A stretch of DNA of 64,000 bases, taken from NCBI GenBank assembly GCA_963726255.1, contig CAVSBL010000002.1, positions 160,001 through 224,000 of the forward strand, written 5' to 3'. The stretch comes from Candidatus Bathyarchaeota archaeon (lineage in GTDB: Archaea > Thermoproteota > Bathyarchaeia > 40CM-2-53-6). Every line of letters starts with the position of its first letter. Within the stretch, counting starts at the first letter, position 1. This document shows positions 2,888 through 62,166 of the stretch, piece after piece. Made by a program: the position numbers and the translations under genes. The notes beneath the pieces are model-generated. The model ran no database searches, was not told where the DNA came from, and worked only from the letters and a program-made list of their open reading frames with translations.

Positions 2888-2989
2888 TGGTGGGGGCGCT
2901 GGGATTTGAACCCAGGACTTCGCGGTTGCGGTTTAGGCAACTCACGCGGGCCCAAGCCGCGTATCATAACCATGCTAGACTACGCCCCC
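2888..2989 (-). tRNA. tRNA-Pro(TGG) with 24-nt intron at 45/46 (2919-2942), CCA encoded
   Basis: Acceptor GGGGGCG/CGCCCCC, anticodon arm CGCGG-CTTGGGC-CCGCG, T arm CTGGG-TTCAAAT-CCCAG. Intron removal gives variable loop TGGTC. Confidence 0.93.
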
Positions 2990-3527: not shown

Positions 3528-4718
3528 GTGCCTTTCTTGGCGGCGAAGCTTGGTTTCATCACCGAGTCTGTTATCGCTGAAATGACTAGTTTGAGTGATG
3601 AATATGGGGCCATAAACCTCGCCGAAGGCATGCCAGATTTCGCAGCACCCCCAAACCTGATCGAAGCAGCAGTTGAAGCGATAAGACACGGCTCGAACCA
3701 GTATGCGAACACATGGGGCTACAAGGGCCTTAGAGAGGCAGTTGCCAACAAAGTCAAGGATTACAACGGCATTGAGGCCGATCCCGAAAAGAACGTTACA
3801 ATCACATGCGGTTCAACCGAAGCCCTCGCCGCCGCAATTTTCGGCTTAACAAATCCCGGCGATCGAATTGTGGTCCCGGACCCCTTCTATGAGAACTATG
3901 TTCCAGACGCAATCATGGCGAACTGCGAACTAACCTACGTCCCCTTCGTGGGGCGTAATCTGCTGCTCGACGAAGAGGCTCTAAAGAACGCCATGGCAAC
4001 CCATCCCAAACTCCTCGTCCTAAACACTCCCAACAACCCAACAGGAAAGGTGATGAGCATAGAGCAATTGAAACTGATTGCGGACTTATGCGAAGAAGAA
4101 AAGACAATCGCTGTTACGGACGAGATATACGAGCACATCATTTACGATGGCAAGAAACATGTAAGCCTAGCATCTTTAGGCAATATGCATGAGCGAACCG
4201 TAACTGTTAGTGGCGCATCAAAGACTTACAGTGTCACAGGATGGAGGGTTGGTTGGGCCATAGCGGAAGCAAAACTCACGAATGCCCTGCGAAAGGTTCA
4301 CGATTACTTAACCATCTGTGCCCCAACTCCGCTGCAAGAAGCTCTCGTCACCGCTCTGAACTTTTCACCCTCGTATTACGATAGACTTTCAGAAGCATAT
4401 GACAGAAAACGCAGGACGATGATGAAAATCCTCGACGAAACCGGGCTTCAATACCACAGGCCAGAGGGTGCTTACTACATTCTCGTGAACGCCCCCGACC
4501 AATTCAAGGATGGGGAACAATTCACCAATTACCTACTGAAGACTGTTGGGTTGGCCGTGTTGCCCGCGAGCGCTCTCTGCCACGACAAGGAGCTGGGCAG
4601 ACGAAAGGTTCGCTTAGCGTACTGTAAGAAAGATACGACCTTGCAAGAAGTCAAGCGGCGCATTAAGAAGCTCAGTGAAAAGCCGAAACAGAGGCTGCCA
4701 GCAAAAACAAGGGCATAA
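3528..4718 (+). CDS. PLP-dependent aminotransferase class I/II
   Basis: INLAEGMPD, NTPNNPTG, DEIY and SKTYSVTGWRVG motifs. Confidence 0.93.
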   Translation: MPFLAAKLGFITESVIAEMTSLSDEYGAINLAEGMPDFAAPPNLIEAAVEAIRHGSNQYANTWGYKGLREAVANKVKDYNGIEADPEKNVTITCGSTEALAAAIFGLTNPGDRIVVPDPFYENYVPDAIMANCELTYVPFVGRNLLLDEEALKNAMATHPKLLVLNTPNNPTGKVMSIEQLKLIADLCEEEKTIAVTDEIYEHIIYDGKKHVSLASLGNMHERTVTVSGASKTYSVTGWRVGWAIAEAKLTNALRKVHDYLTICAPTPLQEALVTALNFSPSYYDRLSEAYDRKRRTMMKILDETGLQYHRPEGAYYILVNAPDQFKDGEQFTNYLLKTVGLAVLPASALCHDKELGRRKVRLAYCKKDTTLQEVKRRIKKLSEKPKQRLPAKTRA

Positions 4719-42759: not shown

Positions 42760-43085
42760 GGCGATGGCAGCATCCCCGTTGAATTGGCATTCCACGCCCT
42801 AGCGGTTTCTCCAAAACCTCCTAAACTCTGTTATCCCATCAGCGCCTTGGCGCTCGCCTTACGACTGCTCTCTTCCGAGCCTCATCGGGTTCGACGATGA
42901 AGAGATGAATTCTTCCCTTCAGAAGGATTCTCCCCTGCGCTGGCCCGGTGGGGCAGAGTCTCATTGTTGGCTTTGGAAGCCTACTAAGGTTAGGAGATGA
43001 CTCTCCCTCGGGTTAACGGGTCCCCGCGTATAGCCGATTTCGGGTCACAGGGAACGGCTGGCTCCCCGATCCTCCTGCCATCGCC
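42760..43085 (-). ncRNA. ffs: Archaeal SRP (7S) RNA
   Basis: Helix 1 GGCGATGGCAG/CTGCCATCGCC; Alu-like GGGGAGCCAGCCGTTCCCTGTGACCCGAAATCGG; helix 8 GAGGCTC-GGAA-GAGAGCA; TTTATA box about 25 nt upstream. Confidence 0.92.
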
Positions 43086-57640: not shown

Positions 57641-58729
57641 TTACCTTGTAATTTCTATCTGTTCCATCTTGTGAAGTAGCTCGGGATGTTTCTCGAATTC
57701 TTCTCTAACTGGTTCGAGGATTTTGATGAGGCTTTCCGCTACTGAGACCTTAAGGTCTTGCGGGTGAATCTTCCCCGCTCGGTACTCTGATTCCAGTTCC
57801 TTATACGTAGTGAAAGTCGCGGGGCCACCGTACTTGCTCGGCCTATCCAGCGAAACTGAATTGGACCACGGAAAGATGATGTGGCGAGCGATTTCAAGGA
57901 CTGGATTGTTCTCTGTCTCCTTCTGGGGGCAGTAGGCGCCTTTGAGTTTGTGTTTGATTGCTTCTGGTTCATCGTGGACGATTATCCCGGTTTCCGTGAT
58001 GCTCTTTGACATCTTAGAAGAGATTTGGGAGCTGACATCTCGATTTTCATCGAACTTGGCCGTGTCCATCCTTTTCGCCCCCGCTAGTCCTATGAGCAGA
58101 GGTGTGTGCAGACTCGTTGGTTTCGGCCAGCCTAGCTTGTCTGCGACATCGCACGCTAAGGCGTGAGCTTTCCTCTGGTCTATGCCTGCACATGCGACAT
58201 CTAGCTTTAGTTCGAATATGTCGGCTGCTTGCATGCATGGGTAGAAGGTTGACGCGGCTTCGAGGTCTTTGGTATCCATCTCCCTGCCCATTATTGGAAG
58301 CGCACGCCAAACGCGGTTTACGTTGATCGACTTGCCAATCCGCACCACCCTTTCCCAGTACTCCCGTTTTGATGCTAGGTCAGACGCCCATGAGTACGTG
58401 GCCTTTGATGGCGGAATTCCTATCGCAGTGAAGCATTGTTTGATGTATTCTCCACAGGTGCGAATATTCTCCATCTGGCCCCCCAGCTTGTTGTTGATCC
58501 AAGCGTGCCAGTCGGCGAGGAAGACGGTGTAATCGAAACCAGCCTCAATCATATCTATGATTTTCCTGCCGCACAGTAGACCCATTCCTATGTGCATCAT
58601 GCCACTCGACTCGAAGCCCCAGTAGGCGCGCGGACGAGTCTTGGTCTCTAGAATCGTCCGCAGTTCTTCGCGGGTGATGATTTCTTCTGTATCTCTGGCG
58701 ACGAGCTCAAGCCGTGTTTCCAGGTCCAA
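57641..58729 (-). CDS. tyrS: Tyrosyl-tRNA synthetase
   Basis: YWGFE.SG..HIG, ADWHAW, YPCMQAADI, GIDQRKAH and KMSKS motifs. Confidence 0.96.
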   Translation of the reverse strand: MDLETRLELVARDTEEIITREELRTILETKTRPRAYWGFESSGMMHIGMGLLCGRKIIDMIEAGFDYTVFLADWHAWINNKLGGQMENIRTCGEYIKQCFTAIGIPPSKATYSWASDLASKREYWERVVRIGKSINVNRVWRALPIMGREMDTKDLEAASTFYPCMQAADIFELKLDVACAGIDQRKAHALACDVADKLGWPKPTSLHTPLLIGLAGAKRMDTAKFDENRDVSSQISSKMSKSITETGIIVHDEPEAIKHKLKGAYCPQKETENNPVLEIARHIIFPWSNSVSLDRPSKYGGPATFTTYKELESEYRAGKIHPQDLKVSVAESLIKILEPVREEFEKHPELLHKMEQIEITR

Positions 58730-58776: not shown

Positions 58777-58933
58777 TTCGTTGGAGGGGATTCGCCGCAG
58801 GGTCGGAGCGCCGGTATTACCAGCGATCCGGCCCCTTTCGCCCACGACACTAACACGCAAACTTCACTGGAGGGCTTCGCCCCACTCAGTTGGCTCTCTC
58901 GGAGGTGGGCGGCTCTGGTGCCTCTCCAACGAA
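58777..58933. ncRNA. Unidentified structured RNA-like element between pheT and tyrS
   Basis: Terminal helix TTCGTTGGAG/CTCCAACGAA enclosing several GC-rich hairpins; no family recognised. Confidence 0.55.
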
Positions 58934-58934
58934 C

Positions 58935-60647
58935 CTATCGTCTCTGCAACTGGAAGAGTTGGTCAAGGTCTAGCTCCATTCCGGCTACAGGGTTTTCCAG
59001 TCTCCAGTTTTCGAGGACTTGGGGGTGAACCTCTCCTATTATCCCAACCTCCCGGTCGCCAATAAGTATGCTACCAACGCGCCCCTCCAAGTAGCTCGGG
59101 TCGACGGTTGGCTTGAGAGTGAACTCGAAGCCGAGATTGAGCATAAGCGGTTGGAGGCTGGCTTTCATTTCCGTGAAGTTGGCTTTCGAGTGGCTTGAGA
59201 CACAGGCCAGCTTTCTAGCGTCTCTCGCCCGGTTGGGTACGGCCGGGTCCCAAATTGCACAGTCTCCGACCTCGAACACTCTCTGAGGGTATTCGACGTG
59301 AGTGTTGTTCGCCAGGAAGTCCATCAGGCTAGGTAAGAGCGAAGGGCGTAGGCATGTCATTGTCATGATTTTCGGGTTTGCAATCTCCACTGCCAGACCA
59401 GGTTGCCTGTTCATCTTCGTAAACAACTTCTCTTGGTTCCCCATCATGAAGCCGAGCATTTCTTGGAAACCAAGTCCCACCATGAGTTCTCTCACCGAAT
59501 CTGAGAACTCTTCCATAGGTGACAGGCCGCCGATTGTTAGGTCAGATGGCCATTTCGGTTCCATTTTGTTTAGGCCGTAGGCGATGGCGACATCTTCGAA
59601 GATGTCAACAGGGTGTAGGATGTCCAATCGGTAGCATGGGACGCGAACGGTGAGTTGTTTGCCGGTCGAATTCGCTACCTCATACCTTGCGCGGCGAAGA
59701 AGGGACACTATCTGGGCGCCGCTGAGGTCCAGCCCGATCATGCCTCTAAGGCTGTCGAGCGATAGTTTGACTCGGCGCTCGTTGAGGTCTGGCGTTTTGA
59801 CTGTCCGTGGTTTGCCGTACTCGTAATGTACTACGGCTGGTGAGATTTCAGCGCCTCGGTCGGCTAGGGTGGTTGTGAGTATGGTTACGGCGTTCATGAC
59901 CGTTTCGTCAGAGGTGCCCGTGACTTCGACAAGGATGTTCTTGGTTTCGGGCGTTACTCGGCCTAGGTCATCGGAGTTAATGATGGGTGGGAAAGAGAGC
60001 ACTTTGTGTTTCGAATCCAGCAGGATGGGCATTCTTTCATGTTCCTTTACGATGTGGCCGTACTCTAGCCCCTTCGGGTGCGCTTCGAGAATTTCGCGTA
60101 GCGACATTTCCTTCTCGCCTTCCAAGGGTACGAATTTCACGTCATCCGGACCCACCGCGCCGTACGTGAGTGGTGGATCAATCAAATCGAAATCGTAGAA
60201 CCCTATGGATGACCTTCGGCGCTTTCTCCCGTAGCTCTGGTCAAGCTTCTCTTGGAGGTGGATTAATCCCCGAATAATCACGTCATTCAGCTTGATGCGG
60301 CGGGCGACTACGCACGCAATAAACGGCCTAATCTCTTTCAGTTCTTTATCCACTTGGATTTCGACAGCAGGTTTCTTTGCAAGCGGGTAGGTCTTGAGGC
60401 CCACTTCGATTCCCAGCAACCCCCTTAGCGCTCGGGCTATGCCTTCAGTGCTCCAGGTGTCCGGCCGGTTGGTGTCTTTGTTTTCCAACTGAAGTTCGGA
60501 ATCTTCCGAGATGTCTTCCGTGCGGCTTAGGCCGGAGAGTTCGCACTTCACGGAGTAAAGTATCTCATCGAGTTGCTCGTGGTCCCTAGGCAGCTTCCTC
60601 CCGACTAGTTGTTCCAAGTCGTCTATTCGGGTGAAGATTGTGACCAT
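58935..60647 (-). CDS. pheT: Phenylalanyl-tRNA synthetase beta subunit
   Basis: NRPD, QEKL, SFPPIINS and YR.DILH.VD..EDVAIAYG motifs. Confidence 0.96.
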   Translation of the reverse strand: MVTIFTRIDDLEQLVGRKLPRDHEQLDEILYSVKCELSGLSRTEDISEDSELQLENKDTNRPDTWSTEGIARALRGLLGIEVGLKTYPLAKKPAVEIQVDKELKEIRPFIACVVARRIKLNDVIIRGLIHLQEKLDQSYGRKRRRSSIGFYDFDLIDPPLTYGAVGPDDVKFVPLEGEKEMSLREILEAHPKGLEYGHIVKEHERMPILLDSKHKVLSFPPIINSDDLGRVTPETKNILVEVTGTSDETVMNAVTILTTTLADRGAEISPAVVHYEYGKPRTVKTPDLNERRVKLSLDSLRGMIGLDLSGAQIVSLLRRARYEVANSTGKQLTVRVPCYRLDILHPVDIFEDVAIAYGLNKMEPKWPSDLTIGGLSPMEEFSDSVRELMVGLGFQEMLGFMMGNQEKLFTKMNRQPGLAVEIANPKIMTMTCLRPSLLPSLMDFLANNTHVEYPQRVFEVGDCAIWDPAVPNRARDARKLACVSSHSKANFTEMKASLQPLMLNLGFEFTLKPTVDPSYLEGRVGSILIGDREVGIIGEVHPQVLENWRLENPVAGMELDLDQLFQLQRR

Positions 60648-60648
60648 G

Positions 60649-62166
60649 TCAGAGCACCTTCTGTTTTCTCATCCAGTCTAGGTCTTGGGCGAAGAGTAGG
60701 CGTATGTCGTCGATTCCTGCACGCATCATGTAGAGCCTATCGACGCCTATGCCCCATGCGATGACAGGCACCTTGATTCCCAACGGGAGCGTCAGTTCAG
60801 GCCTAAAGATTCCTGACCCGCCGAATTCGAGCCACCCATATCCCTCTTTGTACGCTTGCAGCTCGACGCTTGGTTCGGTGAATGGGAAATAATCTGGCCT
60901 AAAGCGGACTTTGTCTGCACCCGCGATGTCGATGGCAAAGCGCTCAAGCACGCCCAAGAGGTCCCTTAATGATAAGTCAGCGCCGACCACGATGCCTTCT
61001 GCTTGGTTGAATTCTGTAAGGTGAGTGCGGTCCACTTGGTCGGGTCTAAAGCATCTTGCGAGTGAGAAGTATTTTCCAGGTATCTTCAATTGCTTGCTAA
61101 CAAGTGTTCGAGCGCTGAGAGCGGTTCCTTGGCTTCTCAATATCAGTTTCAGGGCTTCGCTACGCGAGTAGGAGTATTTCCATCCGGTTGATCCGGTCTT
61201 CCAACCATTTTCATGGGTCTTTGAAACCGGATCCATGAAACGTTCGTATTCTCCAAGGCTTCCCCTTTCTTGTGTCTTGACGAAGTAAATGTCATGTATC
61301 TCACGCGCGGGGTGGTCTTGTGGCATGAAGAGCGCGTCGCAGTTGAAGAACATCAGTTCGACTGTTGGGCCTGTCATCTCCTTGAAGCCTAGGTTGACAA
61401 GTTTCGTTTTTAAGTTGTCGAGGAAGAGGCGGTATGGTTGCTTCTTTCCCGGCCAGGCCGAAGTGACTGGGGCTGCGATGTTGTACTTGCGAAATGCTAC
61501 TGCCTTCCATTGCTGGGATGTGATCATTTCGGGTGTGAGGTCGCTTATTTCTTCGGGGACAGTGATTCCTTCTTCGAGTGCTTTCCAACCCTGCGGCGTC
61601 AGTTCGACGTAGCGCTTCGTTTGCCTTCTGCTTGTGACCAGCTGTCGCCTCTTCAAGGTCTCGACGTTTCCGCGAACAGATGGTGCTAATTCCTCTAGGG
61701 AGGTTTCGGGTTTTGTTGCGAGGAGTTCGAGTGTTCGTTCCGTGTCGGTCTTGTCGGGTATGCCGGCTGCTTTCAGGACTACGCTCTGGAGCTGGGTTGT
61801 AACCTCGCACCAGCCTGCGACCTTGACCCAGCCTAGCGCGACTGAAGCGAGGTTCGGGGGAATGTTAGCGCGTCTCGCTGCTTGGTCGAGAGTTGCTTCG
61901 CCGCCGAGTTCAAGTACGGCCTGAAGAAGCCGTCTTTCGGGCAAACCTTGCTTTGCATGATTCATTGCTTCTTCTGTGAGTTTGAGGACTGTTCGTTCAG
62001 CTTCCGTTACTCGAACAAGCTGTCGCTCTTGTAGGGTTGTTAAGGCTCGCGTGACGGCGGCACTGCTTTGTTTCGTGTTCACAACTAGCTCTTCGAAGGA
62101 GCAGTTGCCGCCGGAGGATTGCAACGAGTGCATTACGGCCGCTTCGTTCTCACGCATCTGAATCAA
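60649..62166 (-). CDS. pheS: Phenylalanyl-tRNA synthetase alpha subunit
   Basis: PQDHPARE, THLTEFNQ, YFPFTEPS, EFGGSG and WGIGVDR motifs. Confidence 0.96.
   Translation of the reverse strand: MIQMRENEAAVMHSLQSSGGNCSFEELVVNTKQSSAAVTRALTTLQERQLVRVTEAERTVLKLTEEAMNHAKQGLPERRLLQAVLELGGEATLDQAARRANIPPNLASVALGWVKVAGWCEVTTQLQSVVLKAAGIPDKTDTERTLELLATKPETSLEELAPSVRGNVETLKRRQLVTSRRQTKRYVELTPQGWKALEEGITVPEEISDLTPEMITSQQWKAVAFRKYNIAAPVTSAWPGKKQPYRLFLDNLKTKLVNLGFKEMTGPTVELMFFNCDALFMPQDHPAREIHDIYFVKTQERGSLGEYERFMDPVSKTHENGWKTGSTGWKYSYSRSEALKLILRSQGTALSARTLVSKQLKIPGKYFSLARCFRPDQVDRTHLTEFNQAEGIVVGADLSLRDLLGVLERFAIDIAGADKVRFRPDYFPFTEPSVELQAYKEGYGWLEFGGSGIFRPELTLPLGIKVPVIAWGIGVDRLYMMRAGIDDIRLLFAQDLDWMRKQKVL

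Follow-up and report, generated by a model that had tools for sequence, protein, structure and literature searches.

A circular RNA excised from between pheT and tyrS in Bathyarchaeia, with most of the features of a box H/ACA guide and helix 69 of the 23S rRNA as its proposed target

Several described archaeal RNAs resemble in part the element considered here, which occupies positions 58777-58933, between the genes pheT and tyrS, in a stretch of 64,000 nucleotides (nt) of contig CAVSBL010000002.1 from a Candidatus Bathyarchaeota archaeon (assembly GCA_963726255.1; this whole stretch is referred to as the window). In Haloferax volcanii, stem-loop 2 (SL2) of the guide RNA sR-h45 directs pseudouridylation of helix 69 of the 23S ribosomal RNA (rRNA) at positions 1940 and 1942; both pseudouridines arise from an unpaired UNUN at distances of 17 and 19 nt, UCUG worked too, and the ACA box is needed (PMC7075261). 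Nanoarchaeum equitans possesses a 159-nt H/ACA small RNA (sRNA) with kink-turns and ACA, located beside NEQ389, the tyrosyl-tRNA synthetase gene (PMC3491384). Circles excised at bulge-helix-bulge (BHB) motifs are known from introns of transfer RNA (tRNA), among them the tRNA-Trp intron with its C/D box sRNA, and from pre-rRNA, and further BHB cases are the permuted signal recognition particle (SRP) RNA of Thermoproteus and a 5' untranslated region (UTR) circle of HVO_1309 (PMC7714728, PMC4731332). Lastly, circular reads have been obtained for the H/ACA RNA sR109 of Sulfolobus solfataricus, with 2 and 2 junction reads (PMC3326292). We consider it reasonably probable that the present element encodes a guide RNA of the box H/ACA type that is excised through a BHB, is circular, and most likely targets helix 69.

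On the minus strand, the two ends of the element form a BHB architecture, with two 3-nt bulges on opposite strands, a 4-bp (base pair) helix between them, and helices flanking them. The outer helix pairs residues 58921-58933 with residues 58777-58789 (13 bp with one A.C), and thus includes the perfect 10-bp helix TTCGTTGGAG/CTCCAACGAA (58777-58786 / 58924-58933) that the preliminary description had reported as extendable to about 13 bp, both of which are confirmed in the sequence. Compensatory changes affect 8 of its 13 pairs among 21 relatives. A second kink-turn where this helix joins the rest, envisaged on visual inspection, was rejected in favour of the BHB, to which the letters correspond. 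The 5' bulge AGA (58914-58916) is followed by CACC (58917-58920), which pairs with GGCG (58793-58796) with one A.C, and the 3' bulge AAU covers residues 58790-58792. The second pair of this central helix is A-U in 4 of the 21 relatives, G-C in 4, and A.C in 13, and the helix reads CACC/GGUG, UGCG or GCGA/UCGC, CGCC/GGCG, CGGC/GCCG, CGCG/CGCG, or UUGC/GCAA among families. A BHB score of at least 20 next to the core is reached in 16 of 28 loci versus 12% of 560 shuffles, and a score of at least 25 in 10 of 28 loci versus about 1% of the shuffles, the motif being clear in families f1, f2, f9, and f5. The order of helix, 3-nt bulge, 4-bp helix, 3-nt bulge, and helix, as well as cutting in the bulges and ligation, are shared with the BHB circles described in PMC7714728 and PMC4731332. 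In contrast with the circles as described there, the present one probably carries an H/ACA guide and is flanked by two protein genes that belong to an aminoacyl-tRNA synthetase (aaRS) cluster.

Six metatranscriptomic runs matched a small part of a 1.1-kb query, and four of them (X15, X16, X19, and X20) were examined. Besides weak pieces, namely pheT in X16 and tyrS 58422-58456 in X20 (depth 9.5, 3 mismatches), the contigs of all four runs cover only the interval from 58827 or 58831 to 58914 (58928 in X15). In X16, the depth is 527-1281 over the element versus 2.5-6.1 over pheT, i.e., ~100 times that of the covered neighbouring pheT stretch, these contig depths being rough and possibly summed over several relatives. 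The contigs of X16, X19, and X20, which come from three studies, are permuted: residue 58914 runs into TTCGCCGCAG (58791-58800), followed by a relative's version of the second hairpin and by a re-entry at 58831/58838. Two 154-nt contigs (X19 and X20) repeat with a period of 124, as a k=31 assembler would output for a 124-nt circle, and a shorter relative gives a period of 116 (X16). Since the element is never tandemly duplicated in the searched genomes, with one model match in each of 86 genomes, the junction arises at the RNA level. The mature circular RNA, of which the circle and junction are demonstrated, thus comprises the 124 nt 58791-58914 on the minus strand, with its 5' A58914 joined to its 3' A58791. 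The 5' cut falls between G58915 and A58914, the junction contigs holding 58914 and not 58915, and the 3' cut falls between A58791 and U58790, as given by the contig junction. Both cuts are located after the second nucleotide of the bulge, the position at which canonical BHB cuts occur. A low-depth contig of X15 (2.3) crosses the 5' cut site and is either precursor or DNA of a relative. It is highly probable that the element is an excised, circular, and stable RNA. The genome encodes two EndA paralogs and RtcB, and we infer that these are the cutting and joining enzymes. The circular sR109, unlike the present case, seems to be a minor form, and the passages on it in PMC3326292 mention no BHB. 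After ligation, the junction reads GGC-GAAA-GCC (58791-58796 with 58911-58914), which could form a 3-bp stem that is specific to the circle and capped by a GNRA tetraloop; this stem has 2-3 bp within the genus and is not evident in other families.

The core of the circle (58839-58911) is a hairpin comprising a lower stem, a large internal loop, and an upper stem that contains a probable kink-turn; an ANA/ACA box accompanies it. It was compared among 28 diverse sequences gathered with covariance model R1, in an alignment fitted to the model, which favours pairing. The lower stem pairs residues 58905-58911 with residues 58839-58845, shows compensatory changes in 4 of 7 pairs, and occurs as GCCCAC/GUGGGC, GCCUAC/GUAGGC, GCCUGC/GCAGGC, GCUUGC/GCAAGC, and GCCCGC/GCGGGC. 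Alignments of relatives delimit the internal loop, or pocket, as CUCCGAGAGA on its 5' strand (58895-58904) and GUGUUAGUGUC on its 3' strand (58846-58856). Its letters are nearly constant in the alignment of 30 loci (5' CYCYGAGAGARC, 3' GUGUUAGUGUY), and in the wider alignment GAGAG (58896-58900) and GUUAGU (58849-58854), each identical in 28 of 28 order-level rows, are the only invariant loop letters. The hairpin CTC-CGAGA-GAG proposed in the preliminary description is not a helix but belongs to this invariant single-stranded loop. The upper part (58857-58894) starts with helix 2 (58888-58894 / 58857-58863; compensatory changes in 5 of 6 pairs) and ends with an apical stem closed by a GAA loop (58869-58885; 4 of 5 pairs). 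Between them, the conserved letters G58887 and A58886 face G58865 and A58864, next to a bulge made of A58868, G58867, and U58866, and both A58886 and the U-G-A 58866-58864 are invariant or almost so. We take this motif to be a kink-turn on the basis of the consensus rather than of a computation. The ANA box (58836-58838), one nt 3' of the lower stem, reads AAA in this genome. The A-N-A pattern is invariant, with ACA in 22 of the 28 order-level sequences and in all 16 from other orders; the remaining rows are five AAA or AUA in the source genome's own family f1 and one AUA in f6. In archaeal H/ACA guides, a kink-turn or K-loop is described 5-6 bp above the pocket (PMC2651775). Most of the defining features of such a guide are present in the element, which is probably a box H/ACA-type guide RNA.

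The second hairpin of the circle (58799-58835) is variable in sequence and length, being shorter in L005, L012, L015, and others, and has no pocket, but all 15 of its pairs covary among the 21 relatives. With a hand-drawn structure and these full-length relatives, 83.9% of the cells are paired for the full element versus 38-45% when the partners are slid, and compensatory changes are observed in 27 of 55 pairs, which none of 500 shuffles reached. The core stems are invariant within the genus and covary in the 28 wider sequences, with 13 of 19 pairs compensatory and 91.4% of the cells paired versus 32-46% when slid. Both the conservation and the structure of the element are demonstrated in this way. 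Comparison among relatives is the real support for this structure, because the minimum-energy fold is only moderately better than those of shuffled sequences (z of -2.6 for the minus strand and -3.5 for the plus strand), so folding alone decides nothing. The inverted repeat CGCCCAC/GTGGGCG, the hairpin GGGGC-GAA-GCCCT, and the long hairpin 58799-58835 reported earlier are all found on the minus strand where they had been placed. The strand itself had been held undecidable from G-U wobbles; it can now be assigned as minus, since the G.A pairs of the kink-turn and the ACA box exist on that strand only, where G.U pairs are common (e.g., 16 of 21 sequences at one pair).

The element is present as a single copy in the 2.42-Mb genome, in which further copies had been suggested as worth seeking. 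BLAST reports it in 36 of 61 related genomes, at full length in the genus and as the core only (58840-58910) in other families. Covariance model R1 extends this to one copy each in 86 of 105 genomes of the order, with every family represented, and, for a sample of 151 genomes that spans the class, to one copy each in 84. Among the first 30 loci, tyrS follows on the same strand in 29 and pheT precedes in 28, the sole exception for tyrS being L032 of family f2, where a tyrS is absent from the surrounding 1.5 kb. The order provided 18 further loci, of which 13 have a same-strand tyrS downstream and 4 are divergent, tyrS not being found in the last one. The divergent loci (L057, L058, L065, and L066) all belong to family f2, and in all four the element lies on the strand opposite to tyrS. 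Finally, among 16 loci from other orders, 11 have a same-strand tyrS downstream and 5 only pheT upstream.

The target of the putative guide was sought in the rRNAs. A search of 16S and 23S restricted to complements of the invariant letters of GAGAG and GUUAGU, separated by an unpaired gap of 2-6 nt, reports two places in the 23S: helix 69, and a wobble-tolerant match inside a 703-nt intron. The helix 69 match, GGGAG-UAAC-UCUGA-CUCUC-UU, provides 4 + 5 Watson-Crick pairs, GUUA of the 3' pocket strand being complementary to UAAC and GAGAG of the 5' strand to CUCUC, which are E. coli residues 1911-1914 and 1920-1924, respectively, by our own numbering. In this pairing, the intervening UCUG(A), which contains U1915 and U1917, would remain single-stranded. 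The exact pattern UAAC + U N(1-5) + CUCUC occurs once in 16S plus 23S, and in 1.7% of 300 dinucleotide shuffles. Six genomes of five families and one genome of another order share the same helix 69 stretch without any difference, a constancy that would explain the invariant loop. By our own count, the equivalents of U1915 and U1917, two universally modified uridines, lie 17 and 19 nt from the ANA position. In the typical H/ACA geometry, the target U is 14-16 nt from ACA; the distances found here are outside this range and equal those of the atypical sR-h45 SL2. As in that hairpin, a kink-turn, here a probable one, and an ACA box (AAA in this genome) are combined with a proposed target in the loop of helix 69 that would leave both uridines unpaired (PMC7075261). 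The resemblance is one of features and no similarity in sequence is claimed. Whereas sR-h45 is a linear RNA with two hairpins and its own gene, here a single guide hairpin and a plain hairpin form a BHB-excised circle. The case for helix 69 as the target is evenly balanced.

Other target searches gave the following results. Scans of 16S and 23S for contiguous or one-mismatch duplexes returned nothing above shuffled rRNA. Guide-target covariation was looked for in G111, which has the variant pocket GAUAG, and no 23S match was found in that genome. The top matches of a genome-wide scan (C2:2349520, with 10+8 bp, C2:728398, and C2:541385) are inside protein open reading frames (ORFs) and were judged to be chance. 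In locus L035 (G000 C2:2348000-2351000), the weak C/D-box Rfam matches sR21 (E 0.15) and snoR60 (E 0.48), at 1235-1300 and 2045-2111 on the minus strand and below the gathering score, flank an ORF. As to the 23S gene, its 703-nt insertion (G000 C2:95122-95824, outside the window; L033 about 3556-4258) follows AAGGUA a few bases 3' of helix 69 and contains an ORF of 165 residues with a LAGLIDADG-like motif. The 23S insertions of relatives occur at other points of the same few bases, after CUCUUAA in G050 and after CUCUC in G045. Regarding the geometry, five homologues of another order (L075, L082, L084, L086, and L088 of family f22) lack the A-G of GUUAGU and read GUU--UGUU; their 3' pocket strand is two shorter, the first pairing G being 14 nt from ACA, which may represent a switch from the atypical dual-site to the typical single-site geometry.

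These observations can be assembled into the following mechanism. The element would be transcribed on the minus strand, most likely together with pheS and pheT, since the outer helix starts a single nucleotide past the pheT stop. The precursor would fold as a BHB made of the outer helix, the 4-bp helix, and the two 3-nt bulges. The tRNA splicing endonuclease EndA would cleave both bulges, and the RNA ligase RtcB would seal the excised piece into the 124-nt circle. The latter would present one H/ACA hairpin, of which L7Ae would recognise the kink-turn and Cbf5 the ANA box, next to the plain second hairpin. We infer that a Cbf5-Nop10-Gar1-L7Ae complex assembles on the circle, which would then most likely bind helix 69, GUUA pairing with U1911-C1914 and GAGAG with C1920-C1924, and leave U1915 and U1917 unpaired for dual pseudouridylation. 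Cbf5 (TruB_N, C2:296573-296866) and Nop10 (C2:1587826-1587963) are both encoded. The Cbf5 match is weak and consists of two adjacent pieces inside a frame of 260 residues; a split or intron-containing cbf5 occurs in some Crenarchaeota.

A number of points weigh against this account. Concerning the circle, the evidence consists of contigs rather than raw reads, mostly from close relatives (95-99% alike), and contigs show neither the strand nor the ratio of circle to linear form; moreover, 12 of the 28 loci have no clear BHB next to the core (f3, f4, f6, f7, f8, and f10, as well as single members of f1, f2, and f5). Concerning the H/ACA assignment, the source genome's own box is AAA rather than ACA, the kink-turn G on the non-bulged strand varies outside the genus (C, A, or U), and helix 2 spans 7 positions, one of them a mismatch, from the kink-turn to the pocket, instead of the 5-6 bp described. 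Concerning the target, the fit to helix 69 is partly post hoc, as the search was restricted after the invariant letters had been seen, and a generic two-sided complementarity scan of 16S and 23S gives a best real score of 30 versus 27-39 in 30 shuffles. The duplex on the 3' side has only 4 bp, 5-6 target nucleotides are left unpaired versus four with the Haloferax guide (PMC7075261), and the invariant G58850, U58849, and G58848 are left unexplained. A second register can also be drawn, in which GUUAG pairs with CUGAC and UCUU with GAGA, the target being the equivalent of U1921.

Among the other explanations, the likeliest, though improbable, is a stable intron-like circle that mainly reflects processing. 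EndA would in this case serve to separate or re-join the pheT and tyrS cistrons, and the H/ACA-like shape would contribute no more than stability or the binding of proteins, the RNA being an orphan guide that lacks a target. The BHB and the circle are observed as this explanation expects, the match to the rRNA scores poorly in the generic scan, and a BHB-flanked circle from the 5' UTR of a messenger is known in Haloferax (PMC7714728). However, GAGAG and GUUAGU are invariant across the order while the flanking BHB sequences vary freely, as predicted for a trans-acting guide with an invariant target. The exon-exon joint of 58915 to 58790 expected from re-joining is found in none of the RNA contigs, which is poor evidence since contigs cannot show absence. 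Excision may conceivably affect the pheT-tyrS transcript.

A quite unlikely alternative is that the element guides the modification of U35 to pseudouridine in the pre-tRNA-Tyr anticodon, a function put forward for Sulfolobales that would account for the association with tyrS. H/ACA guides for U35 of tRNA-Tyr have been proposed and reconstituted in vitro (PMC2651775), and the only H/ACA sRNA of N. equitans also adjoins tyrS (PMC3491384). In this element, the distance from UAG (58850-58852) to the ANA box is exactly 14 nt, C32-U33-G34 being a possible pairing partner of this UAG, and Pus7/TruD (PF01142) was not found in the genome, which is 98.5% complete. Against this, 6684 YUGUA sites are complementary to the guide, but none has a tRNA-like context, and no tRNA-Tyr gene was located in the genome, either by ARAGORN with and without introns, by the tRNA model of Rfam, which gave 32 matches at E<=10, or by five home-made scans (anticodon arm, BHB intron, D-arm, T-arm, and C1-G72 acceptor). 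The element is also present in TruD-positive families (4 of 4 in f7, 3 of 3 in f8, 2 of 6 in f10, and 15 of 16 in f2). A mutual exclusion of element and TruD, seen with BLAST, is gone with the covariance model and is an artefact of BLAST sensitivity, and the idea that the element complements TruD was dropped because R1 finds it in TruD-positive families. A guide for pre-tRNA-Tyr lacks support, though nothing refutes it. Only some 30 tRNA genes can be recognised in the genome, nearly all with introns (7 without), and the scans found none with a C1-G72 acceptor pair. TruD itself occurs in 2 of 15 genomes of the source genome's family and in all sampled genomes of f7, f8, and f10; the f2 matches consist of two pieces within frames of about 350 residues.

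The preliminary description had offered two readings, a cis-regulatory leader of tyrS, possibly sensing tRNA or TyrRS, and an independent non-coding RNA. The latter reading has gained from the excised circle and the H/ACA hallmarks; a T-box-like leader that senses tRNA-Tyr or TyrRS and controls the transcription or translation of tyrS has become very unlikely. It could draw on the position directly upstream of a same-strand tyrS in the three sets of loci given above, and on the TGGT and TAC that the second hairpin carries at its tip. This tip is, however, unconserved: its loop differs in nearly every relative, is partly deleted in some, and is deleted in L005. In addition, the RNA is cut out and accumulates independently, its invariant letters lie in the H/ACA-type pocket with the kink-turn and ACA, and the opposite strand in f2, together with the loci devoid of tyrS (5 of 16 in other orders have none downstream), rules out an obligatory role as a tyrS 5' leader. 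As in bacterial T-box leaders, the element lies upstream of an aaRS gene and possesses a kink-turn, here a probable one. Unlike them, it has neither a conserved specifier codon nor a conserved UGGN bulge, shows no terminator/antiterminator alternative, and may lie on the other strand, and no Rfam T-box or riboswitch model matches it at the gathering score or at E<=10. A T-box riboswitch was therefore rejected. What remains of the leader reading is a strikingly conserved neighbourhood with tyrS. The neighbour tyrS is shared with the N. equitans sRNA, for which two guide hairpins and its own promoter and terminator are reported, but neither BHB nor circle (PMC3491384). Lastly, a miniature inverted-repeat transposable element (MITE) or chance inverted repeat, for which the long terminal inverted repeat would speak, can practically be dismissed: the single copy in this genome and in each relative, instead of the dispersed copies named earlier as a sign of a MITE, the fixed synteny, and the compensatory changes in the helix all stand against it.

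The genes around the element form an aaRS cluster in the minus-strand order pheS (58935-60647 being pheT, pheS occupies 60649-62166), pheT, element, tyrS, and a Toprim-domain gene. The assignment of pheT is given by Pfam PF17759, B5, and B3_4, and that of tyrS (57641-58729, TTG start) by NF006330 TyrRS (1.4e-128, 428.8 bits). The ORF coordinates agree with the earlier statement that the element begins 1 nt past the pheT stop and that 47 nt lie between its end and the start of tyrS. No TATA-like box was seen, by eye only, in the 60 nt upstream inside pheT. The earlier impression that the element fits none of several known RNA families is borne out by Rfam, which returns no match at the gathering score there and, in a permissive scan, only two chance matches (E 4 and 9). 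RNase P, 5S, and SRP RNA are excluded as identities because each of the three is located elsewhere. The sole Rfam matches at the gathering score in the window are the archaeal SRP RNA (42764-43081, minus strand, 163.6 bits) and an intron-containing tRNA (2891-2989, minus strand).

A full-text literature search, which left most subscription journals uncovered, returned no description of a BHB-flanked circular H/ACA guide between protein genes. The element is an interesting annotation and processing case, and no new class of regulator; it advises caution, in that structured RNA upstream of archaeal aaRS genes is not to be read as a riboswitch. One further idea, which is improbable, is that across the class the RNA acts as a helix 69 guide only as the closed circle released by the tRNA-splicing machinery from the pheST-tyrS messenger, its excision also being a processing switch for the amount of intact tyrS message. 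If true, this would tie ribosome maturation to the supply of aminoacyl-tRNA synthetase, and would explain why the guide stays beside tyrS even in Nanoarchaeum. The unusual part is the maturation, as a guide would be freed from between protein genes by the tRNA-splicing endonuclease and kept circular, which would represent a new class of substrate for this enzyme and a natural test of the H/ACA ribonucleoprotein (RNP) on a circular guide. H/ACA guides are poorly catalogued beyond a few cultured archaea, and no Rfam model finds the present RNA. If the proposed function holds, a class-wide, single-copy guide for the most conserved ribosomal pseudouridines would be of use both in annotation and as a marker RNA.

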